NCBI GenBank assembly: GCA_038882975.1
Contig: JAVZNE010000001.1
Coordinates: 128,001 to 192,000 of the forward strand
Direction: 5' to 3'
DNA: 64,000 nucleotides
From: Candidatus Bathyarchaeia archaeon
Lineage (GTDB): Archaea; Thermoproteota; Bathyarchaeia; Bathyarchaeales; Bathycorpusculaceae
Shown: one piece after another, positions 2 through 60,314 of the stretch
How the letters are laid out: every line of letters begins with the position of its first letter
Position numbering within the stretch: position 1 is the first letter of the stretch
Program-made: the position numbers and the translations under genes
Notes under the pieces: generated by a model
Seen by the model: the letters and a program-made list of their open reading frames with translations, nothing else
What the model was told of the DNA's origin: nothing
Databases searched by the model: none

Positions 2-418
2 TTTGAAGGGGTTAATGTCTATAGGCTTTATGCAACATCAATACTAAAGCCATGCCTAGAGGAAAAGCATTTCCAATTATTCCTAACAAAAATTTCAAGA
101 CTTGAAAAATATAAATGGATTCTCCCAGCATCTCGCCAAGAGGCTGAAGAGCGAATCCGCCTCAACACCACAAATAATTCCACAAAAATATTTTTAAACG
201 GCAGACAGGTCACGTTCAAAACACGCGTTTATGAGTTGTCGGTTTTCCAGTCAGAAACTTTGCAAAATGAGGTTGTCCTAACGTTTGTTAATGAAATGGA
301 CACGTATCTTATGCCAATAATCAGCATTTTCTTAATTCCACCGCTCACGGTATGTCTATGGAAAACTGTTAAACTCAAAAAGAGAATGAAAAACGCATAT
401 GCTGTCTTCTACTTTTAG
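2..418 (+). CDS. Partial CDS (5'-truncated by window), C-terminal hydrophobic anchor plus basic tail
   Basis: The frame of ORF 236..418 is open from position 2; it ends in ..PIISIFLIPPLTVCLWKTVKLKKR.. Confidence 0.6.
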   Translation, partial: FEGVNVYRLYATSILKPCLEEKHFQLFLTKISRLEKYKWILPASRQEAEERIRLNTTNNSTKIFLNGRQVTFKTRVYELSVFQSETLQNEVVLTFVNEMDTYLMPIISIFLIPPLTVCLWKTVKLKKRMKNAYAVFYF

Positions 419-513
419 AAGCAATCCATAAGAGGGTACCTTGTTCCATTTTCAACATAATCCTTATAAATTTTCCAACTGAAGCGCGGGAATGGTGAAA
501 GCTGGTATCCCTT

Positions 514-11815: not shown

Positions 11816-12196
11816 TTAGTAGGCTAGGCACTCAATCATTCTGCTACAAGTTAAACACTCATCTGGTATTGGCGTATTCTTTGGACGCTTCTTCAAATAA
11901 CCAAGAAAATGTTCACACTTTGCCCCTTCTGATTCGCTTTCCTCTTTTTTGTGTACAATAACTGTGGAGGTTTTTTCCTCTTCTTCCCTGCTTCTTTCAT
12001 GCCTCATGGCTTTTACTTCTCCAACTTTTGTTAGGCAACGCGGACAAGCATAATAGGTTCTGAAAGAACCGCCAGAAACAATTGTTGCCAAAATTGGTTT
12101 TTCAAAGTTTTCACCACAGCCATAACATGTCTGACCATTATACCTTGAAAGATAGTACCCGCCACTATACCTTGCTAATGATATGTTTTCAGACAT
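11816..12196 (-). CDS. Cys/His-rich double zinc-finger hypothetical protein
   Basis: CYGC..CPRC and C-terminal CEHFLGYL..PDECLTC..EC; start likely MSEN (12196). Confidence 0.7.
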   Translation of the reverse strand: MSENISLARYSGGYYLSRYNGQTCYGCGENFEKPILATIVSGGSFRTYYACPRCLTKVGEVKAMRHERSREEEEKTSTVIVHKKEESESEGAKCEHFLGYLKKRPKNTPIPDECLTCSRMIECLAY

Positions 12197-12275
12197 ACTT
12201 TGCAACCCATCAGTATGCAGAATATTAATATTTAATAAACCTTTTTGCACAAACGTACAACACAAAAACACATAG

Positions 12276-12350
12276 TGGGCCGGACCGGATTTGAACCGGT
12301 GACCTTCCGCACGTCAAGCGGATGTCCTAACCGAGCTAGACTACCGGCCC
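12276..12350 (-). tRNA. tRNA-Val(GAC)
   Basis: Reverse complement GGGCCGG...CCGGCCCA cloverleaf; anticodon arm TCCGC-TTGACGT-GCGGA; GGTTCAAATCC T-arm; no encoded CCA. Confidence 0.95.
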
Positions 12351-12452
12351 TCTTTTGCCCGGAAATAGTTTACTTGCATTTCCAATATATAGCTGATTCG
12401 TTTTTGGATAAAGATTTAAGATTTAAAAGTGTCTTAGAGGGTGGTGGCTGTT

Positions 12453-12540
12453 GCCGGGATGGCGGAGTGGATAACGCGCAGGCCTTGAGAGCCTGTGGCC
12501 CGTTTGGGCCGCGTGGGTTCGAATCCCACTCCCGGCGCCA
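12453..12540 (+). tRNA. tRNA-Ser(UGA)
   Basis: GCCGGGA/TCCCGGC acceptor stem, anticodon arm CAGGC-CTTGAGA-GCCTG, long variable arm, G73, encoded CCA. Confidence 0.95.
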
Positions 12541-12575
12541 AAACTGCCGTTTAAGGCGTTTTAGGGTGATTTATT

Positions 12576-12947
12576 ATGCATTGTTCTGATTGTGGTGAAT
12601 GCTGCCGTGAAACCGAAATGGAACTTTCAAGCGATGACGTAGAGCGTTTGGTGGATGCTGGTTATCGCCCAGAGGATTTTATGGTTGTACGTGATGATGT
12701 GCCACATCTCAGAAATGTTGATGGTTGTTGCTACTTTTACAGCCCAGCTAAAAGGAGGTGTCGAGTTTATAAGATAAGACCTTTGGGATGCCGTCTTTAT
12801 CCAGTTATTTATGTGGACGGTGTAGGCGTGACTTTGGATGAGTTATGTCCTATGAGGCATACAGTTTCCAAGAAAGAGTTTAAGCGGAAAGCGAGAATTC
12901 TCAAGAGGCTTTTGGAAAAGATTTATGGTGAACGTTTGTTCCGCTGA
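12576..12947 (+). CDS. YkgJ-family (CxxCxxCC) cysteine cluster protein
   Basis: CSDCGECC, CRVYKIRPLGCRLYP. Confidence 0.88.
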   Translation: MHCSDCGECCRETEMELSSDDVERLVDAGYRPEDFMVVRDDVPHLRNVDGCCYFYSPAKRRCRVYKIRPLGCRLYPVIYVDGVGVTLDELCPMRHTVSKKEFKRKARILKRLLEKIYGERLFR

Positions 12948-13506: not shown

Positions 13507-15231
13507 CTAGTTTTTCGGTGAAACATCTGCCCAATATTTTTCGAACTGTTCCACGTATTTGTATCCGCTGTCGGGGAAAACAAGAACGTACACGCCTTTT
13601 TCTCCGGCAATTTTCTGGAAAGCGTGCACAATGGCTCCTGAGCTTAGCCCTATTAGGAGACCTTCCTTTCTCGCTATTTTTATTGCGCCTTCTATGGCTT
13701 CTGTCTGTTTCACTTCTACTACTTCGTCGAAATGTGCGTTGTGGAACCATTTCATGCCTGTTTCTATCCGCCTTATGCCGGGAATAACTTCGTTTTGGGC
13801 TGGTTGGACGCCAACAATTTTTACGTTGTGGCCGTATTTGGTTTTGAAGTAGTGGGATATGGCGCTCATATGCCCAGACGTCCCAAGTCCTCCAATTATG
13901 CATGTGGGCTTTAAGCCTAGGCTGTTCAATTGGTCGTCTATTTCTCTGGCTGTGTATTTTAGGTGGACTTTGAAGTTTGCGTCATTCTCGAACTGGTTTA
14001 GGTGGACAGCATTGTCGGCTTTTGCCTCTTTTTCTACGTGGCTTATCGCCTCAACGGTTAAGCCCACTGGAAGCCGCACAACCTCTGCTCCGAGAACTTT
14101 TAGGTAGATGTCGCTTGCCTTCTGTATGGTTTTCGGTATGAAAAGCCTTGTTCTCACGTCGAGCGTATTAGCTATGGATGTTAAGGCTATGCCAGTATTT
14201 GTGGATGTAGCCTCATACAAAGCAGTTTTAAGCTCTCCATTCTCCATAGCTTCTTTAATCATAGCCCAACCTATTCTGTCTTTTACACTGTTGCTGAAAG
14301 GGTTATAACACTCAAGCTTAGCCCAAACGCTGCAGGAGGTAGAGGAAAGGGAATTTAACTTTACAAGTGGGGTTGGCCAACCATCATAAAGCAGTTCTAG
14401 AGTGCTATTGTAAACTTTTAACACTTTGCGGCTTTGCCTCTTTTTAGTCAATAACTTTTCCAGCGGAACATTAATTTTGACCGGTTCTGCGAAAAGGGTG
14501 AAGCTTTTTGGCTGGAGCTTTGGACCCTTAACCCCAGCCTCAATAATTCTCTCCTTAGAAAAGTTTTCCATGTTTGGTGCTTTGATTTCTACATCCTTTA
14601 AGTTCACCGTAAAAGTGGGTGCCTTCTCTGCCGAAAGTAGGTCGAGTGCTTGGAAGGCTTCATAGCCATGCAATAAAACGCCCGTTCTCTTATCAATTAC
14701 TAGGGGGGCATCGATGACTTCTGTTTTAAGGAATTTAGTGTATGTTGATAGTACATCTGCAAGTTCAACATTCATGGCGGCTTTTATGCGTTTTATGGGC
14801 GTAAGTGTAAGTTCGCTTTTCAGCACTTCGATGGGGATGTCAACCTTCTTTTCAATTGACGATATATGCGATAGGGTTTCACTGTTTCTTATCATGTGGC
14901 ATGTTGATTTAGGCGGAAAACGCTTCCCAGATAAGGCTGCTTCTATCACGTCCCTTTTTGTTAAGTTGTAATTATTTCTCCATGTTTGAACCACTATGTT
15001 TGGCGAGTTGTAATCCACGTAGATTACTGGGATTCTTTTGCATCCGAGGCTTTTGAGGACGTTGAAGCGATGTTCGCCATCCAATATTATATTTGTTTTT
15101 TTGTCGACGACTATTGGATGTTTTAGGATTTTGTCTGCAGCTATTTGTCGTGTCAGTTCTTCGAGATGCTCGGGATCTGTCTCTTCGTGTTCGTGGAGCC
15201 TTTCCAGTTTTATTAGGTGTATTTCGGTCAT
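13507..15231 (-). CDS. Fusion: ParB/Srx (SerK-like) domain(s) + PLP cysteine synthase / O-phosphoserine sulfhydrylase
   Basis: N-term LHEHEE..HPIVVD..ILDGEHR, then a degenerate second copy; C-term PTPLVKL, YNPFSNSVKDR, EATSTNTG, GTSGH, IPGIRR, FPDSGYKY. Confidence 0.85.
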   Translation of the reverse strand: MTEIHLIKLERLHEHEETDPEHLEELTRQIAADKILKHPIVVDKKTNIILDGEHRFNVLKSLGCKRIPVIYVDYNSPNIVVQTWRNNYNLTKRDVIEAALSGKRFPPKSTCHMIRNSETLSHISSIEKKVDIPIEVLKSELTLTPIKRIKAAMNVELADVLSTYTKFLKTEVIDAPLVIDKRTGVLLHGYEAFQALDLLSAEKAPTFTVNLKDVEIKAPNMENFSKERIIEAGVKGPKLQPKSFTLFAEPVKINVPLEKLLTKKRQSRKVLKVYNSTLELLYDGWPTPLVKLNSLSSTSCSVWAKLECYNPFSNSVKDRIGWAMIKEAMENGELKTALYEATSTNTGIALTSIANTLDVRTRLFIPKTIQKASDIYLKVLGAEVVRLPVGLTVEAISHVEKEAKADNAVHLNQFENDANFKVHLKYTAREIDDQLNSLGLKPTCIIGGLGTSGHMSAISHYFKTKYGHNVKIVGVQPAQNEVIPGIRRIETGMKWFHNAHFDEVVEVKQTEAIEGAIKIARKEGLLIGLSSGAIVHAFQKIAGEKGVYVLVFPDSGYKYVEQFEKYWADVSPKN

Positions 15232-15306: not shown

Positions 15307-15702
15307 TTGAAACCACCATGTGTAATCGTAGTGAAATATCTTCTTCCGGCAATAAGAGTGCTGGTAACAAAAGAGCTTATCGAAAAACACAACATGAGAA
15401 AAATAGAGGCTTCTGAAAAGATGGAGCTAACCCCAGCGGCTATAACCCAATATTTTAAAGGTGAAAGAGGAGCAACGCTCACAAACGAAATAGCTCAGTC
15501 CGAAGAGGCCATGAAAATGGTATCAAAGTTGGCTGAAACCCTCGCCAGAAAAGACGCAACACCAGAAAGCGTCATAGAGAAACTCTGCGAAATATGTGCC
15601 ACCATAAGATATGAAGGGGTTATCTGCAAACTTCATCAAGAAGACTTGCCAACCCTCAAAGAATGCAGGTGTGCCACATGCTATTCCTCGCCAGAAACCT
15701 AA
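15307..15702 (+). CDS. Archaeal HTH transcriptional regulator with C-terminal Cys/His cluster
   Basis: PPC..LPAIR, LTPAAITQYFKGERG, ICKLH..CRCATC. Confidence 0.8.
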   Translation: MKPPCVIVVKYLLPAIRVLVTKELIEKHNMRKIEASEKMELTPAAITQYFKGERGATLTNEIAQSEEAMKMVSKLAETLARKDATPESVIEKLCEICATIRYEGVICKLHQEDLPTLKECRCATCYSSPET

Positions 15703-15716
15703 ACTGAAGCTCTAAT

Positions 15717-15899
15717 TTACCGTTTTACTGTCACTACAGCCTTCATTTGCCTTCGCTCTTTCTCAACCTTGACGATTCTCACCCTTATTTTGCTTAAAAG
15801 CTCCTTTATCATTTTTCTGGCTTCTTCCCTTGTTTGATATTTTCCGCTGAGCTCAATCCATGGCAGTGTTTCGTCAATTTTTACCCATATGGCATACAA
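15717..15899 (-). CDS. Small hypothetical protein
   Basis: 60 aa, upstream GGTGA SD-like sequence. Confidence 0.55.
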   Translation of the reverse strand: MYAIWVKIDETLPWIELSGKYQTREEARKMIKELLSKIRVRIVKVEKERRQMKAVVTVKR

Positions 15900-20155: not shown

Positions 20156-21412
20156 TTAAGTTGTGCCCATCTCCCATTCCGTCAAATACTTTTTCTGCTC
20201 CTCTGTCAGCTCATCTATTTTTACGCCGATTGCCTCAAGTTTAAGCCTCGCTACAGCTTCGTCTATTTCCCTCGGAACTGGATACACTTTAGGCCGCATC
20301 CTCTCGCCTTTAACAAGGTATTCGACGCTTAAGGCTTGATTTGCAAAGGACATATCCATAACTTCGGACGGATGTCCCTCAGCAGCCGCCAGGTTTACAA
20401 GTCTCCCTTCGGCTAGCAAATAAAGCCTCCTACCATCTTTTAACACGTATTCGCCAAGGTTTGGTCTAACAGCCCTTTTCGAGGCTGCCAGTTCTTCAAG
20501 GTCTTTTAGGCTTATTTCAACGTTGAAGTGGCCACTGTTGGCGAGGATGGCCCCATCCCGCATCTTCTCCATATGCTCTTTCCTAATGACGTTTATGTCG
20601 CCAGTTGTTGTTAGGAAAATGTCACCTATCTTGGCTGCCTCGCTTATGGGCATTACTCGGAAACCATCCATGACAGCTTCAAGAGCCCTTAAGGGGTTTA
20701 CTTCCGTCACTACGACGTTAGCGCCCATCCCTCTTGCCCGCATTGCTACACCTCTGCCACACCAACCATAGCCACAGACAACAAAGTTTTTACCAGCCAA
20801 GAGAATGTTTGTCGCTCTTAAAATGCCGTCTATTGTGCTTTGCCCAGTTCCATAACGGTTGTCGAACAAATATTTTGTGTAGGCGTCGTTAACCGCTATT
20901 ATCGCGTATTTTAGGGTTCCAGACCTTTCCATGGCCCTAAGCCTCAAAACGCCTGTTGTTGTCTCTTCAGTGCCTCCTTTAACATTTGGTAATGCGTCTG
21001 TTCTTTTGCTGTGGATTGTGCTTACTAAGTCTGCCCCGTCGTCCAATGTTATTAGGGGTTTTTGGTCTATGACCCTTTCAATGCACCAGTAGTATTCGTC
21101 TGTTGTTTGACCACGCCACGCGTAAACGTGAACACCCTTCTCCGCTAGTGCTGCCGCAACCTCATCTTGTGTTGAAAGCGGGTTAGAGCCGCAAAGAGCA
21201 ACTTTCGCGCCTCCAGCTAGGAAAACGTCAACCAGCACTGCTGTCTCCTTTGTTACGTGTAAGCATGCGCCGAGCACAACGCCTTTTAAGGGTTTTTCCT
21301 CGCTGAACCTTTTCCTAATCTGGTTTAGAACAGGCATGTGTCTTGAAGCCCATTCTATTTGCAGAACTCCTTTCGGTGCTAGGCTTTCATCCTTAACTTT
21401 AAAGTTTGCCAT
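20156..21412 (-). CDS. ahcY: Adenosylhomocysteinase
   Basis: [35 protein letters not shown]. Confidence 0.98.
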
Positions 21413-21447
21413 TAAATCGCCTTCCGCTATGCCATTTCCACCAACAA

Positions 21448-22833
21448 TTATTTAACGTTGCGCCTAAGCCTTTCCAAAAGGCTATTTTTGGCTTTCTCCA
21501 CCATTTCCATAACCTTCTCAATATTTAATGTTGTTAGGCGTCTGTTTTCCATCACTATTTTTCCGTTTATTATGACGGTTTCAACATCCGCCGATTTTGC
21601 AGTATAAACAAGATGGCTAAACTCATTATAGAGTGGGCATAGATGCGGCTTATCAAAGTTTATGATGGCTAAATCAGCCTTTTTCCCCACTTCTATTGAG
21701 CCTATCTCATTCTCCCAGCAAAGAGCCCTAGCCCCATCCAAAGTTGCCATTTTCAAAACTTGCTGGGCAGACATTACTGTCGGATTTCCGCTTACCCCTT
21801 TATGGAGTATGGCTGCCACCTTCATAACCTCAAACATGTCCGCAGCATTATTGGAACATGGACTGTCTGTGCCAAGCGAGACCGTTACGCCTTGTTCCAG
21901 CATTTTTGGAACGGGACTTATGCCTGAAGCAAGCTTAAGATTTGAAATTGGGTTGTGGGAGACCTTAACGCCTCTGGCTTTCATTAACGCCATATCATCG
22001 TTCGTTAGTGCCACACAGTGCGCTGCGATAACACGCTCGTCTAAAACGCCCAAAGAGTCCAAATACTCCATTATGCCGCCTTTAACATCAACATTGAAGG
22101 CTTTCCGTATCTTGTCAGCCTCGTCAAATGTTTCTGCCACATGAATGTGCCACATAATTGGCGCCTTTTCAGAACCATACTTCCCATCGAGTTCCTCGCG
22201 TAAAGCCTTCAGCTCCTTCATATATTCTGGGTCAACGGTGTAAGGCGCGTGGGGGTCAACACTTACGCGGATAAGCCCCCCAGCCTTATTATGCCAGTTT
22301 TTGGCTAAGTCTTCCAACGCTCTTCTATCCTCATCCTTCCTCCATGAAAAGCAAACATGCCCAACAACGCCTCTGACACCAGCATCTACAAAAGCTTTCG
22401 CCTCATTCTCCCCTGGCATGTAATGGTACATCGTGTTAACGGTTGTTGTACCGCCCATTATGGATTCTACAGCCGTCAGCAAGCTGCCAACATAAATGTC
22501 TTCAGCGGTCATCAACGCTTCTATGGGCCATATCCATTTTTCAAGCCACTCTTGAAGGGGTAAATCGTCGGCATAACCCCTCAAAAGGCTCATGGCTGCA
22601 TGTTGGTGAGTGTTTATAAGCCCTGGAATCACAACCTTTCCTTTGGCGTTTATCTTCTCATAGCCAATTGCATATTTACGAAGTATCGGCTCAGTTTTCC
22701 CAACATCAACTATTGTCCCGTTTTCTATAGCTATGGCACCGTCGCGAATTATTTCATCCCTTCGCATCGTGACTACGGTTCCGCTGTGGATTAGAATGTT
22801 CAATTTTAGTATCCCCTCCGCCTTTTTGAACAT
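21448..22833 (-). CDS. mtaD: 5'-methylthioadenosine/SAH deaminase (amidohydrolase)
   Basis: [24 protein letters not shown]; adjacent to ahcY. Confidence 0.82.
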
Positions 22834-45100: not shown

Positions 45101-46351
45101 TTAAGGCCACAAGCCCAAAGTCTTTATTGCCTCAGCCACCCGTCCTACTCCCAACATTAGGGCGGCTGTTCGCATGGGTTCCTTCGCATCTTTTGAGGTT
45201 TTGTAGACGTCGTTAAATGCCTTCACCATTTTTCTTTCAAGCTTCTGGTTCACTTCCTCTAAAGTCCAGTGCTCCCTTGTTAAGTTTTGAACCCATTCAA
45301 AGTAGCTTACTGTGACGCCGCCGGAGTTTGCTAATATGTCTGGAATTAAGAACACATCCTTTTCATTGAGCACTTTGTCGGCTTCTGGGGTTGTGGGTCC
45401 GTTGGCTCCCTCGGCTATTATTTTTGCTTTTATGTTGTTGGCGTTTGCTTTTGTAATCTGATTCTCTAATGCAGCGGGCACCAAAATGTCACATTCCAAC
45501 TGCAGCAACTCCTCATTAGTTATGTTCTTGCACCCTTCAAAGTTTAGGACGGAACCTGTTTTCGCCTTATGCTCGTAAACCTTGTAGGGGTTTAATCCTT
45601 CCTTGCAATAGATTCCTCCGCTGGAGTCGCTTACACCTATTATTTTGCATCCCCAATCGTAGGCTATTTTTGCGGCGTTCCATCCCACGCTGCCAAACCC
45701 TTGAACCACAAATCTTGCATCTTTCATTTTTAAACCGAGGATTTTTGCAGCTTCTCTTGCGCAAAACATAACACCAAGAGATGTAGCTTCAGCCCTTCCT
45801 TCAGAACCTCCAACACTTAAAGGTTTTCCAGTAACACATTCTGGGACACTGTAGCCTTTAAATTGGCTGTAAGTGTCCATTATCCAAGCCATTGTTTGGG
45901 CGTCTGTGTAAACGTCCGGCGCCGGCACGTCACGATATGGTCCAATTAGGTCTAAAATTAGGCTTATGTATCGCCTTGTTAGCCTTTCAAGTTCGCCTTT
46001 GGACATTTCCTTTGGGTTACAGCAAACTCCTCCTTTAGCTCCTCCATATGGAATATCAACGACAGCGCATTTCCAAGTCATCCACATGGCAAGGGCGGTA
46101 ACTTCGTCCAAGGTTACGTTTGGGTGGTATCTTATGCCGCCTTTAAAAGGTCCCCTCGCATCGTTGTGCTGAACACGACAGCCTAGGAACGTTTTGATTG
46201 TGCCATCATCCATCCTAATGTTAACAGAAACCATAAGCGTTCTTTTTGGATATTTTAGCATCTCATGCAGTCCGGGGTCAAGCTCAAGTTTTTCTGCGGC
46301 TATTCTTAACTGCTCCAGTGCAGTATCTAGAGCTGAGTAACTCTTTTCCAT
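45101..46351 (-). CDS. gdhA: Glutamate dehydrogenase (Glu/Leu/Phe/Val dehydrogenase family)
   Basis: [43 protein letters not shown]. Confidence 0.95.
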   Translation of the reverse strand: MEKSYSALDTALEQLRIAAEKLELDPGLHEMLKYPKRTLMVSVNIRMDDGTIKTFLGCRVQHNDARGPFKGGIRYHPNVTLDEVTALAMWMTWKCAVVDIPYGGAKGGVCCNPKEMSKGELERLTRRYISLILDLIGPYRDVPAPDVYTDAQTMAWIMDTYSQFKGYSVPECVTGKPLSVGGSEGRAEATSLGVMFCAREAAKILGLKMKDARFVVQGFGSVGWNAAKIAYDWGCKIIGVSDSSGGIYCKEGLNPYKVYEHKAKTGSVLNFEGCKNITNEELLQLECDILVPAALENQITKANANNIKAKIIAEGANGPTTPEADKVLNEKDVFLIPDILANSGGVTVSYFEWVQNLTREHWTLEEVNQKLERKMVKAFNDVYKTSKDAKEPMRTAALMLGVGRVAEAIKTLGLWP

Positions 46352-49057: not shown

Positions 49058-50842
49058 ATGAAAATGTTAAACTCTGTGGAGCTTTCCGCAAGAGAGTTGG
49101 GAATGCTTAAGCTGATGGTGGACTTCTTCGCTGAAAAACCTGAGCTGACCGCAAAAATAGAAAGCTACACAACAGCCCACTATGCCCTTCTAACAACGTA
49201 CTCAGAAAACTTTGGAATACCAATCGAAGACTCCCTGAAAGTTTTCGAGGAGCTCCAAAAGAAAATCACGGAAGCTGAATATGTCCATGTTAAGGCACCA
49301 GAGCCCATAAGGAAGCTTCTACCCTTGACTACTGAGGAGTTGAACATGCTGCGAATTCTTGTGGACTATTTCTCTGAAAATCCAAAAATGGCGTCTGCGG
49401 GTTCGATGTTTTCAAGGAAGGAAGACGCCGTTGCCGAAACCTACATGTGGTTTTATGGAAGTAAGGAAGGAAACGGCGAAGTGGCAAGACAAATTCTAAC
49501 AAATCTCGTCGAGAAGCTTCAAACAGCTGTATTTGTAAAAATAGATACTTTGGCGCCCTTAGCTGTTACGCCAAACCCTTACGAAGCCGCCCTTAAGCAG
49601 TTGGACATCGCAGCTGAAAAACTGAAACTTGACCCTGGCATTCATGAAATTTTGAAGCGCCCCATGCGCACCTTAATAGTTAATATTCCAGTGGTTATGG
49701 ATGATGGGAGCATTCAAGTTTTTACGGGTTACCGTGTACAATATAACGATGCATTAGGTCCAACTAAGGGCGGCATAAGATACCACCCAGAGCTAACACT
49801 AAATGAAGTCACGGCACTGGCGGCATGGATGACGTGGAAAACGGCAGTTGTAGGGCTGCCACTAGGAGGAGCCAAAGGCGGAATCAGATGCAATCCCAAA
49901 GAAATGTCCAAAGCTGAATTGGAGCGCCTAACAAGGGGATATGTGCGGGCTATTGCGAAATTTATAGGTCCAAACATTGATGTGCCGGCGCCGGACGTTT
50001 ACACAGACGCCCAAACAATGGCTTGGATAATGGATGAATACAGCGAAATCGTTGGATACCCAGCCTTCGGGGTTGTAACAGGCAAACCTGTAGGCGTTGG
50101 TGGTTCCCGTGGAAGGAGCGAAGCAACTTCAAGAGGCTTAATGTACACGGTGATAGAGGCAGCCAAATACTTAGGGATAAACCTCAAGGGTGCAACTGTA
50201 GCTGTGCAAGGCTATGGAAATGTTGGATACCATGCGGCACGCCTACTGCATGAGGTTGGATGCAAAATCATAGCAGTTTCAGACTCAAAAGGCGGAATAT
50301 ACAACCTCAACGGGCTAGACCCAGAAAAAGTGTTGGAACACAAAAACAGAACAGGCTCGGTGGTTGACTACCCCGAAAGCACATTCATAACAAACGAACA
50401 ACTGTTGGAGCTAGAATGTGACATTCTTGTGCCCGCTGCATTAGAGAACCAGATAACAAAAGCAAACGCCAACAACATAAAAGCAAAAATAATAGCCGAG
50501 GGAGCCAACGGACCCACAACCCCAGAAGCCGACGAAATTCTATTCAAAAAAGGAGTATTTGTAATACCGGACATTCTGGCGAATTCTGGCGGCGTTATTG
50601 TAAGCTACTTTGAACAAGTGCAGAACCAGATGAACTATTATTGGACCGAGGAGGAAGTGCGGAACAAACTGAAAGAAACAATAACTAAGGCTTTCTACGA
50701 TGTCTTAGAACTTTCCAAACAGTATAATGTGAATATGCGCGTAGCCGCCTACATGTTGGCTGTCAAAAGAGTTGCCGACGCCCTCACGGCAAGAAAGGGA
50801 ACAAGACTCGCACCCATTGAATCTTTGCTAGCACGCAGATAG
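49058..50842 (+). CDS. Glutamate dehydrogenase with ~170-aa duplicated N-terminal extension
   Basis: Full GDH core from [10 protein letters not shown] ([20 protein letters not shown]); extension of two ~80-aa repeats. Confidence 0.9.
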
Positions 50843-59114: not shown

Positions 59115-60314
59115 TCACTGCATAAAACAATATTTAATGCTTTGGAATACTGAGCACAATTTTGCTACTTCACCCTTGATTATCTCTGGATCTTCTCCAT
59201 CCAAAACTGCCCTTTTAATAAGCTCGGCTATTTTTGCCATCTCCTCCTCCCTCATTCCACGCCTTGTAACCTCGCATGTTCCAAGCCTTATGACGCAGTC
59301 TACAATTATGTTTGCCCGCTGAAGTTTTTCGGCTATCTCCCTGCCCCGCACATAATTCCCAAAGTCCAAGATAACTTGGTGAGACTGGGTAAAGCCTAGA
59401 TGCGAGCATTTAACTGGAAAACCATAGTCGTGCAGGTTTTTGGCTAAAGCCTTCGCGTTGCGGATGACTTGCTCCGCATATTCCTTGCCAAACTCCTTCA
59501 TTTCTGCAAGTGCCAAAGTTAATGCTGCAATGCGGTTCCAATGGGCGTTATCCACAAACCTAGGGTAAATCTTAGCTTTCAAGGCTTCGCCATGCTCTTT
59601 ATCGGCAAGAATTATGCCGCCTTGCGGTCCGAAAAAGGACTTATGCGTAGAGCCAAAAAGGGCATGTGCGCCCTCCCTTAACGGGTCTTGAAATTGTTTT
59701 CCAGCGATAAGTCCCAAAACATGGGAACCATCGAAACCCACACGCGCACCAAATTCTCGGGCAATGCTTGCTAACTCTTTAACGGGATGAGGAAAGGTTA
59801 TTAGGCTTGCTCCAAAAATTATGAGTTTAGGCTTTATACGTCTAATAGTTTCTTCGGCTTTTCCAACATCGATTTTCATGTCATCTTTAACAAAGGGAAA
59901 TGGAACCGGCTTTAAACCCAAAAACCCAGCTAATCCGTCATGCCACAATCCAGGATAGCCGCCATCTTCTGGAGAGACACTCACGAGCACATCACCTGGC
60001 TTAGAGAAACAAGCTACAAAAATCATGTCGGCAACATGTCCAGAAAGCGGACGCAAATCAGCAGTTTCGGCTCCAAAAACGTCTTTTGCTAGTTCCTCGC
60101 CAAACTGCTCAATCTCGTCCATAAATTTCGTGCCCATGTAAAAGCGGTCTCTGGCAGTATAGCGGTTTCCAAGCTCGGAGCTAAGGAGACTGCGCACAGC
60201 AGGGCTCATAACATTCTCTGATGGAATAAGGTTTAGGCATTCTTTTCCACGCCAATTTTCATGCCTTTCAACAAGAGCTAATATCTCACTAATCATCGAG
60301 GGGAGCCCCCGCAT
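59115..60314 (-). CDS. Serine hydroxymethyltransferase-like PLP enzyme (divergent)
   Basis: LIPSEN, DGSHVLGL, STHKSFFGPQGG, IRLGT; several canonical motifs altered. Confidence 0.8.
   Translation of the reverse strand: MRGLPSMISEILALVERHENWRGKECLNLIPSENVMSPAVRSLLSSELGNRYTARDRFYMGTKFMDEIEQFGEELAKDVFGAETADLRPLSGHVADMIFVACFSKPGDVLVSVSPEDGGYPGLWHDGLAGFLGLKPVPFPFVKDDMKIDVGKAEETIRRIKPKLIIFGASLITFPHPVKELASIAREFGARVGFDGSHVLGLIAGKQFQDPLREGAHALFGSTHKSFFGPQGGIILADKEHGEALKAKIYPRFVDNAHWNRIAALTLALAEMKEFGKEYAEQVIRNAKALAKNLHDYGFPVKCSHLGFTQSHQVILDFGNYVRGREIAEKLQRANIIVDCVIRLGTCEVTRRGMREEEMAKIAELIKRAVLDGEDPEIIKGEVAKLCSVFQSIKYCFMQ

Follow-up and report, generated by a model that had tools for sequence, protein, structure and literature searches.

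A predicted serine kinase and O-phosphoserine sulfhydrylase joined in one polypeptide in Bathyarchaeia

A 64,000-nucleotide stretch of DNA from a Candidatus Bathyarchaeia archaeon (contig JAVZNE010000001.1, positions 128,001 to 192,000; called the window below) encodes a 574-aa protein with three domains. A ParB/sulfiredoxin (ParB/Srx)-fold domain resembling free-serine kinases (N domain, residues 1-140) is followed by a degenerate copy of the same fold (Mid, residues 141-272) and by a pyridoxal phosphate (PLP)-dependent domain of the O-phosphoserine sulfhydrylase (OPSS) type (residues 273-574). Judged from sequence, the protein is predicted to be a bifunctional enzyme that would convert serine via O-phosphoserine to cysteine, a reading to which we give a probability of roughly 0.6. 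What is shown directly is the homologies, the residue conservation, the duplication, the fusion and the gene-neighbor pattern. An initial annotation of the DNA had proposed the same bifunctional enzyme, and this proposal is consistent with homology, residues and neighborhood in every computational check. Statements on the gene content of this genome cover the window.

Architecture of the Fusion Gene

The gene is one uninterrupted open reading frame (ORF), and all features are collected in Table 1. The motifs named in the initial annotation were all found in this ORF and assigned residues and coordinates, and the intact reading frame bears out the suggested fusion of a ParB/Srx domain, a second copy and a PLP domain in a single polypeptide. 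In a Pfam scan, PALP was matched by residues 283-553 (E 6e-49, 167 bits, cutoff 35 bits) and ParB_N by residues 3-78 (E 1.5e-5), the latter with 25.4 bits slightly below its cutoff of 26.3 bits. The NCBIfam scan ranked the SerK (E 1.2e-16) and SbnI (E 2.7e-14) models first for the N-terminal part and cysteine-synthase models first for the C-terminal part, all of them far below their curated cutoffs. By these scores, the domain matches far surpass what chance would produce.

Among 5.8 billion clustered proteins, the first 100 matches listed (552-608 aa) span at least 95% of the query with 61-100% identity and are named only pyridoxal-phosphate dependent enzyme or, generically, cysteine synthase, OPSS or cystathionine beta-synthase. 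Because at least 100 clusters at 90% identity among the matches listed cover the query to this extent, and because 37 of 80 surveyed loci share the architecture, it is not an assembly artifact.

Relationship of the N Domain to Free-Serine Kinases

The nearest solved relatives of the N domain are both free-serine kinases, as the initial annotation had supposed. A single-sequence phmmer search of the PDB yielded SbnI at E 3.2e-10 and SerK at E 1.3e-8, compared with E values of 0.06 or above for other ParB proteins. With a profile built from 39 short mini-kinase domains (A3), SerK was found at E 4.5e-23, SbnI at 1.5e-15 and the next ParB protein at 1.4e-5. Both this profile and the Foldseek search with the N plus Mid model described below rank SerK and SbnI ahead of other ParB proteins as relatives of this fold. 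The match to SerK falls into two stretches, A3 positions 5-104 on SerK 14-117 and positions 95-126 on SerK 203-234. The N domain therefore corresponds to SerK without residues ~118-202, and we refer to it as a mini-SerK.

SerK from Thermococcus kodakarensis (TK0378, PDB 5X0B, ADP-dependent) has the ParB/Srx core, the HE motif, the DGxHR loop and a C-terminal PKT-x-H in common with the N domain. It is, however, a separate 242-aa protein with ~85 extra residues, whereas the domain in the window is fused to its presumed consumer enzyme and followed by an apparently dead duplicate. SbnI from Staphylococcus (PDB 5UJE, 6NR6), the best single-sequence PDB match, serves as serine kinase for the fold-type II PLP enzyme SbnA. 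Unlike the N domain, SbnI has ~254 aa, is also a transcription regulator and lacks the PPK(T/S) motif in the alignment.

The catalytic Glu and Asp of the HE and DGxHR motifs are both present. Glu16 aligns with SerK Glu30 and SbnI Glu20, and Asp51 with SbnI Asp58. SerK Glu30 is the residue mutated in PDB entries 5x0e, 5x0g, 5x0j and 5x0k (titles E30Q and E30A), structures with phosphoserine and AMP. For SbnI, Glu20 and Asp58 are needed for kinase activity, according to the relevant passage of PMC9641203, which cites Verstraete 2018. Residues H15, E16, D51, G52, H54, R55, K92, K108 and H112 are near-universal in 35 fused, 15 OPSS-adjacent and 126 standalone domains. Glu16 is found in 34/35, 14/15 and 118/126 of them, and the Glu/Asp pair is retained in 34-35/35, 14-15/15 and 118-123/126, respectively. 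Among the fused N domains, D51, G52, H54, R55 and H112 are each present in all 35 and K108 in 34.

When residues 1-275 were searched against 1.84 billion representatives, 1680 matches were obtained at E <= 1e-3 and 732 at E <= 1e-10. Among the matches listed, 126 of the 148 proteins P0122-P0269 have fewer than 200 aa and align with residues ~3-138, and the SerK insert is present in the 234-281-aa proteins P0172, P0169 and P0230. One further match, P0166, is a fusion of a mini-kinase with a SerA-like 2-hydroxyacid dehydrogenase; in P0226 and P0228 the partners are NTP_transferase and cytidylyltransferase-like domains. These three fusions hint that the family feeds phosphorylated small molecules into several pathways. 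P0278, a 149-aa standalone mini-kinase with 58% identity to the N domain of the window, is labeled [Eubacterium] cellulosolvens, and its ESM Atlas neighbors are clusters of 126-142 aa with bacterial and archaeal members mixed; the short family therefore extends beyond archaea.

Short relatives appear in databases as "ParB-like chromosome segregation protein Spo0J", and together with the weak ParB_N match this name could suggest a ParB-type DNA-binding or partition protein, or a nuclease, joined to a metabolic enzyme. We consider such a function extremely improbable: Pfam detected neither a helix-turn-helix (HTH) nor a dimerization domain, the score for TIGR00180 was 28.5 bits against 58.45, the ParB_N match stays below the gathering score, and the kinases are much closer relatives.

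The PLP Domain and the A. pernix O-Phosphoserine Sulfhydrylase

Both sequence and fold identify the OPSS of Aeropyrum pernix (ApOPSS; CysO; PDB 1WKV, 3VSC, 6L0P) as the closest counterpart of the PLP domain, in agreement with the OPSS-type assignment proposed initially. In a search of all PDB sequences, 1wkv ("Protein CysO") was found at E 1.7e-60 with 208 bits, and the next-best cysteine synthase at E 2e-34 with 122 bits. O-acetylserine sulfhydrylases are thus more distant, with at most 122 bits by sequence and a Foldseek E value of 9.6e-22 compared with 4.4e-28 for ApOPSS. A hand count of the alignment gave 122 identities over 289 aligned query residues (~42%). In contrast to the window protein, ApOPSS lacks a kinase, and its N-terminal domain is short, with only ~80 residues.

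Lys317 is equivalent to the PLP Schiff-base lysine Lys127 of ApOPSS, the column that is changed in the K127A entry 3vsc. A regular expression for the lysine motif was matched by 78 of 79 locus ORFs, the exception being L077 with SIKNR. The stretch ATSTNTG aligns with ATSSNFG of ApOPSS, and we take it to be the substrate-binding loop of cysteine synthases. Arg487, in the IPGIRR motif pointed out in the initial annotation, aligns with ApOPSS Arg297 and is kept in each of the 78 locus ORFs that extend this far (IPGVRR in L054; the L044 ORF ends before it). In the A. pernix enzyme, a role of Arg297 in phosphoserine recognition is described in the section consulted of Makino et al. 2016.

The Middle Domain as a Degenerate Duplicate

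BLASTP aligned residues 1-140 with residues 141-275 at 31% identity over 75 residues (E 3e-11), and hhalign of the N and Mid profiles gave a probability of 99.7% and an E value of 1.1e-25 over 128 columns. In the structure models of the two domains, strands and helices follow in the same order. The second, degenerate ParB/Srx copy noted initially is thus a true duplicate in which the catalytic positions have been lost. Across 59 Mid domains, A, M/V, E, A/V and V/L/I mostly stand in place of H15, E16, H54, R55 and H112, respectively. The framework residues are kept (P39 in 56, G52 in 58 and P68 in 59 of the 59), as is the PPKS stretch (P106 in 45, P107 in 38, K108 in 37 and S109 in 45). By this pattern, Mid is predicted to be catalytically dead yet under selection.

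The comparison of the two copies also bears on whether the N domain is a kinase at all. It might instead be a nucleotide-sensing, ParB-type NTP-binding module that gates the sulfhydrylase, with phosphoserine supplied by the SerA/SerC route; the absence of SerK residues ~118-202 would suit such a role, and the sister domain Mid demonstrates that the fold persists without catalytic residues. However, the Glu and Asp of SbnI (for Glu, also of SerK) are kept at the frequencies given above in the fused N domains but have disappeared from Mid within the same polypeptide, the pattern expected under selection for catalysis of N. In addition, measured in E values, the kinases are closer than any switch-type ParB by ~10 orders of magnitude or more. 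A pure sensing function is therefore rather unlikely in our estimate.

Structure Models

The model of the whole protein had a mean predicted local distance difference test (pLDDT) score of 82.9 and a predicted template modeling (pTM) score of 0.81, with block means of 84-96 for residues 1-260. The model of N plus Mid (residues 1-272) reached a pLDDT of 92.0 and a pTM of 0.87. The pTM values, together with pLDDT block means of 81-97 for residues 1-260 across both models, argue for a compact assembly of the modeled domains.

A Foldseek search with the N plus Mid model returned five SerK entries, the Pyrococcus furiosus homologue 1vk1 and three SbnI entries as ranks 1-9. E values were 4.9e-10 to 9.4e-9 for the SerK entries and 1vk1, and 9.3e-8 to 3.9e-7 for SbnI; Noc/ParB (~4e-4) and sulfiredoxin (4e-3) came after SbnI. 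The TM-scores were low (0.28-0.36) because the two-domain arrangements differ.

With the whole model, ApOPSS entry 6l0p was the first match (E 4.4e-28). Alignments to ApOPSS extended over 436-443 columns, with target-normalized TM-scores of 0.80-0.82 over 382-383 residues, compared with ~290-320 columns for ordinary cysteine synthases. The length of the ApOPSS alignment fits Mid plus PLP domain (434 residues), which suggests that the extra N-terminal domain of ApOPSS probably superposes on Mid in the model. A profile of the short N-terminal domains found among the relatives (A7) did not match the ApOPSS N terminus at E <= 1. The evidence for homology between this N terminus and Mid consists of the Foldseek alignment length and the relatives with short N-terminal domains.

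Distribution and Module Exchange

The distribution of the fusion, for which the initial annotation had called, was surveyed with one genome per species. A relative was encoded in 111 stretches, of which 80 loci were kept and classified with hidden Markov models. The full N+Mid+PLP architecture was found in 37 loci (34 whole, 3 cut by contig ends), ThiS/MoaD+Mid+PLP in 3 (L020, L066, L074) and Mid+PLP in 22, and the remaining 18 have a short or no detectable extra domain, 8 of them with weak matches to the first half of Mid. A Bathyarchae* label is carried by 33 of the 37 fusion loci; the other four are labeled "uncultured Sulfolobales archaeon" (three) or "uncultured archaeon" (one). The short N-terminal domains matched the Mid profile with 98.2% probability (E 4.8e-14) and the mini-kinase profile with 97.4% (E 1.5e-11). 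P0121 (269 aa) was considered as a natural N+Mid protein without PLP domain and rejected. It is probably a fragment, since its N domain is near-identical to that of the L018 fusion, with branch lengths of 0.0078 and 0 in a quick N-domain tree (residues 15-150).

Trees of the PLP and N domains were calculated quickly with IQ-TREE and rooted at the midpoint, so that they inform on clustering and not on the order of events. In the PLP-domain tree, all 34 whole fusions fall into one clade of 41 rows (SH-like approximate likelihood ratio test, SH-aLRT, 92), in which the three ThiS forms are nested. This clade lies within a group of 60 rows (SH-aLRT 99) that comprises all Mid-containing rows and two contig-cut rows. 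The nesting indicates exchange of the N-terminal module on a common Mid+PLP chassis. In the ThiS forms (L020, L066, L074 and the proteins P0111, P0113, P0114, P0118 and P0120), a MoaD/ThiS domain of SAMP-like type, ending in GG or GS and followed by a linker, replaces the kinase. These relatives have ~67% identity and reach 64.1 bits with TIGR01687 (cutoff 49.5). A carrier fused in this way would need cleavage after Gly-Gly before thiocarboxylation.

Gene Neighborhood

The kinase is not fused in 43 loci. In 15 of these, a standalone mini-kinase is encoded in the 6-kb flanks, and in 12 of the 15 its gene immediately adjoins the PLP-enzyme gene. In eight of these (L062, L064, L065, L067, L068, L076, L077 and L079) the mini-kinase is located directly upstream on the same strand, with spacings from a 4-29-nt overlap to an 86-nt gap. 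Four mini-kinases are divergent at a distance of 57-83 nt (L048, L049, L052 and L053), and three are farther away in the flank (L050, L051 and L061). The 15 loci are labeled Thermofilaceae, Desulfurococcales, Acidilobaceae, Pyrodictiaceae, Wolframiiraptor and Nitrososphaeria, plus one "Woesearchaeota" bin. In the N-domain tree, the neighboring mini-kinases are spread over three or more separate groups, and the fused domains make up a single one. The occurrence of standalone mini-kinases beside OPSS-type genes in other archaeal lineages lends independent support to the serine-to-cysteine reading. At one fusion locus (L063:7821-10642), the genes directly downstream of the fusion gene encode a class-V aminotransferase and a 560-aa SerB-SerA fusion (phosphoserine phosphatase-phosphoglycerate dehydrogenase; SerB 181.7 bits against a cutoff of 144.15, phosphoglycerate dehydrogenase model E 9.8e-110). 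Together with P0166, in which a mini-kinase is joined to a SerA-like dehydrogenase, this locus ties the kinase family to serine metabolism, in favor of the proposed reading.

This recurrence also speaks to the idea that the N domain phosphorylates a substrate other than serine, or that the fusion is a neutral accident without metabolic coupling. The family, with 732 representatives at E <= 1e-10, is large and lacks annotation, and its mini-kinases also occur fused to NTP_transferase and cytidylyltransferase-like domains (P0226, P0228). Nevertheless, the link between kinase and OPSS recurs as fusion, as same-strand adjacency and as divergent neighbors across several lineages, and the phosphate-recognizing Arg of the PLP partner is present in every locus ORF long enough to reach it. 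Both variants of this idea are very unlikely on this evidence.

Sulfur-carrier genes mark the kinase-less forms. ThiF is encoded in the flanks of 0/37 fusion, 2/3 ThiS-fusion, 5/22 Mid+PLP and 2/18 short or domainless loci, and a cysteine desulfurase in 0/37, 2/3, 7/22 and 5/18, respectively. The flanks of the fusion loci contain a ThiS-like ORF in 1/37 and a JAB protein in 1/37, so a carrier/ThiF/JAB context is not characteristic of them; it does occur in some Mid+PLP and ThiS-fusion relatives. A JAB gene is found within 6 kb in L040 and a ThiS gene in L045. Genes for threonine synthase and cysteine desulfurase lie in the flanks of both L066 and L074, with an additional ThiF gene in L066. In the window, 62 ORFs of 100 aa or more and 19 small ORFs were scanned, and no ThiS, ThiF, JAB, cysteine desulfurase, SerA, SerB, SerC or CysE was detected.

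The CysM-CysO-Mec-MoeZ system of Mycobacterium tuberculosis synthesizes cysteine from phosphoserine and a protein thiocarboxylate, CysM carrying out the condensation with CysO. CysM has the same fold as the PLP domain (PDB 3DKI and 3FGP are among the Foldseek matches), and the relatives of the window protein share the ThiS/MoaD, ThiF, JAB and desulfurase context. In contrast to the mycobacterial system, ThiF and cysteine desulfurase genes are not nearby in the window or in any of the 37 fusion loci. It is thus conceivable that the kinase makes phosphoserine and that the PLP domain uses a ThiS/SAMP-type thiocarboxylate or another nucleophile (glutamate as in SbnA, sulfite or homocysteine). Relatives of ~67% identity with an N-terminal MoaD/ThiS domain, and the sulfur-carrier genes within 6 kb of ThiS-form and Mid+PLP relatives, are in line with this possibility. 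SbnI-SbnA is, by NCBIfam names, a precedent for a serine kinase feeding a PLP enzyme that does not make cysteine; the SbnA product is a diaminopropionate precursor. Against these points stand the scarcity of carrier genes in the fusion loci and the window and the scores of the PLP domain. The SbnA-type model TIGR03945 reached 121.2 bits against a cutoff of 349.95, CapA cysteate synthase 104 bits and cystathionine beta-synthase 144 bits, compared with 188 bits for cysKM and 208 bits for ApOPSS. Moreover, the thiocarboxylate version would still give cysteine. We regard a nucleophile other than sulfide as unlikely.

Proposed Reaction and Its Assessment

In the bifunctional enzyme that we propose, residues 1-140 would act as a minimal ParB/Srx-fold kinase converting free L-serine to O-phospho-L-serine, with Glu16 as base and the Asp51-Gly-x-His-Arg55 loop holding the nucleotide phosphates. 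The phosphoserine would be passed on without release to residues 273-574 and bound there via Arg487. An aminoacrylate would then form on the Lys317-bound PLP, and addition of sulfur would give L-cysteine. Mid would pack against the kinase and PLP domains as a fixed scaffold and pseudo-dimer partner. What we infer here is that the short form is an active kinase, that it acts on serine with ATP, ADP or CTP as nucleotide, that sulfide is the donor and that any channeling takes place. Either sulfide or a protein thiocarboxylate may provide the sulfur. For the nucleotide, the portion consulted of PMC12704722 states that its identity follows no predictive rule and describes one SerK-like protein that bound CTP.

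Several observations lower our confidence in this proposal. The ~85 SerK residues (~118-202) without counterpart in the N domain amount to about a third of SerK and may hold serine-binding residues. To our knowledge, no member of the short form has been characterized or assayed. The NCBIfam model for SerK (NF053625) gave 60.6 bits against a cutoff of 380 and covered profile positions 15-101 of 244; that for SbnI (NF033589) gave 53.1 of 350 bits, and the N domain does not have the ~240-255-aa two-part architecture of full-length SerK and SbnI. Position 111 is Cys in the window protein and in 7/35 fused domains, and Arg or Lys in most relatives. The fusions of mini-kinases to nucleotidyltransferases (P0226, P0228) mean that the family may phosphorylate other small alcohols. 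On the side of the PLP domain, the cysKM model TIGR01136 stayed at 188.3 bits against a cutoff of 344.15, and residues ~311-420 of the whole-protein model have pLDDT values of 56-68. Finally, since close relatives of the PLP domain carry ThiS/MoaD in place of the kinase, beside ThiF, JAB or desulfurase genes, sulfide is not certain as the donor.

A broader scheme, which we put forward tentatively and consider doubtful, is a modular archaeal "cysteine synthasome". In it, Mid would be an adaptor common to an entire clade of phosphoserine sulfhydrylases that recruits either a mini-kinase, fused or separate, or a ThiS/SAMP-type carrier, and the N-terminal domain of ApOPSS would be an eroded remnant of this adaptor. 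Archaea and bacteria have hundreds of unannotated "ParB N-terminal domain" proteins of 120-190 aa; in this scheme, no smaller small-molecule kinases would be known, and free serine would have been their ancestral substrate.

Relation to Previous Work

In the pages consulted of Makino 2016, SerK supplies phosphoserine to cysteine synthase in a Ser to phosphoserine (Sep) to Cys route, and clear SerK homologues are reported only in Thermococcales and Desulfurococcales. A SerK-OPSS fusion was not described in the portions of the literature searched, which included Makino 2016, the ParB-fold survey, GapMind 2026, Mukai 2017 and PMC9641203. The six spreadsheets of the PNAS 2025 ParB-fold survey contain no mention of PALP, PF00291, pyridoxal or SerK; its SI Appendix, which lies outside this check, may show the fusion. 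The main text of that survey, as consulted, does not mention PALP, pyridoxal, PLP, sulfhydrylase or Bathyarchae, and "cysteine" occurs in its reference list only.

If the serine-to-cysteine reading is correct, the route via phosphoserine would reach Bathyarchaeia in fused form, and Thermofilaceae, Pyrodictiaceae, Acidilobaceae, Wolframiiraptor and other Nitrososphaerota in the form of adjacent genes. It would also provide a functional lead for the unannotated short ParB-like family and a natural single-polypeptide model for how a kinase passes a labile intermediate to a PLP enzyme. Names used in databases, among them "pyridoxal-phosphate dependent enzyme" and "Spo0J", would need correcting.

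Adjoining Genes and Other Features of the Window

Table 1. Features of the fusion gene and its surroundings in the window
Feature	Residues	Position	Strand	Basis or remark
Whole gene, three-domain protein (574 aa) plus TAG stop		13507..15231	(-)	Single ATG-to-TAG ORF, uninterrupted
Mini-SerK, ParB/Srx-fold domain, putative free-serine kinase	1-140	14812..15231	(-)	PDB phmmer, family profile, Foldseek
HEHEE	13-17	15181-15195	(-)	Motif check
His15-Glu16; Glu16 = SerK Glu30 = SbnI Glu20	15-16	15184..15189	(-)	Alignments
PIVVD	39-43		(-)	Motif check
Asp51-Gly-Glu-His-Arg55 (DGEHR), GxxR-type phosphate-binding Box II of the ParB fold; Asp51 = SbnI Asp58	51-55	15067..15081	(-)	
Pro106-His112 (PPKSTCH), aligned with SPKTTRH at SerK ~218-224	106-112	14896..14916	(-)	Second aligned stretch, SerK 203-234
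Mid, predicted degenerate kinase-domain duplicate (pseudokinase)	141-272	14416..14811	(-)	hhalign, secondary-structure order
PLVID..LHGYEAF	176-193		(-)	Motif check
GPKLQPKSF	236-244		(-)	Motif check
Fold-type II PLP domain, A. pernix OPSS type	273-574	13510..14415	(-)	PDB, Foldseek, Pfam
NPFSNSVKDR	310-319		(-)	Motif check
Lys317 = ApOPSS Lys127, PLP Schiff-base lysine	317	14281..14283	(-)	Alignment column changed in 3vsc; invariant in alignment A1
Ala341-Gly347 (ATSTNTG) = ApOPSS ATSSNFG	341-347	14191..14211	(-)	Alignment; invariant in A1
VIPGIRRIETGM	482-493		(-)	Motif check
Arg487 (IPGIRR) = ApOPSS Arg297	487	13771..13773	(-)	Alignment; invariant in A1
CBS-pair protein, 137 aa		12951..13364	(-)	Downstream of fusion gene; Pfam CBS 3e-30
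HTH protein, 131 aa, Cys-rich tail		15307..15702	(+)	Divergent, 75 nt from fusion gene; likely dedicated regulator
tRNA-Val(GAC)		12275-12350	(-)	~1 kb downstream of fusion gene
tRNA-Ser(TGA)		12453-12540	(+)	~1 kb downstream of fusion gene
eL15 ribosomal-protein leader, Rfam RF03144		8442-8487	(+)	39.6 vs 33.7 bits, ahead of L15e gene

The divergent 131-aa protein next to the fusion gene weakly matched an HTH of the XRE/lambda-repressor-like type (E 0.007) and no Pfam or NCBIfam family. Homologues were found within 6 kb in 35/37 fusion, 1/3 ThiS-fusion, 9/22 Mid+PLP and 4/18 other loci, and shorter forms of ~112 aa follow Mid+PLP genes. The protein is likely a dedicated regulator of the fusion gene and possibly responds to sulfur or cysteine. 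A 131-aa ORF in L020 was rejected as a homologue of it, being a wrong-strand ORF with 13% identity. A 60-aa ORF (15717-15899, (-)), convergent with the regulator gene, has 43% identity to an ORF at the same place in L027, and comparison with three further loci revealed no counterpart. The remaining small ORFs upstream are unrelated. Downstream of the fusion gene, the association with the CBS-pair protein is weak, homologues being present in 8/37 fusion loci only. The ORFs 11816-12271 and 12245-12589 partly overlap the tRNA genes and may be spurious.

The window as a whole is a housekeeping region with genes for ribosomal proteins, RNase P subunits and replication. A serine hydroxymethyltransferase gene is located at 59115-60314. 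S-adenosylhomocysteine hydrolase is encoded beside an amidohydrolase (20156-22833, (-)), which places methionine-cycle genes ~5 kb from the putative cysteine gene. A 594-aa glutamate/leucine-type dehydrogenase (49058-50842, (+)), with catalytic domains from residue ~202, has an N-terminal extension of 200 aa without Pfam match; an ordinary paralogue of 416 aa is encoded at 45101-46351. Between 28000 and 36000, the G+C content is 0.35-0.37, compared with 0.41-0.47 in most other 2-kb blocks. This segment encodes glycosyltransferases, dTDP-sugar enzymes, an exosortase-like protein and two ORFs of 865 and 199 aa without Pfam matches, and it is probably a surface-glycan island.

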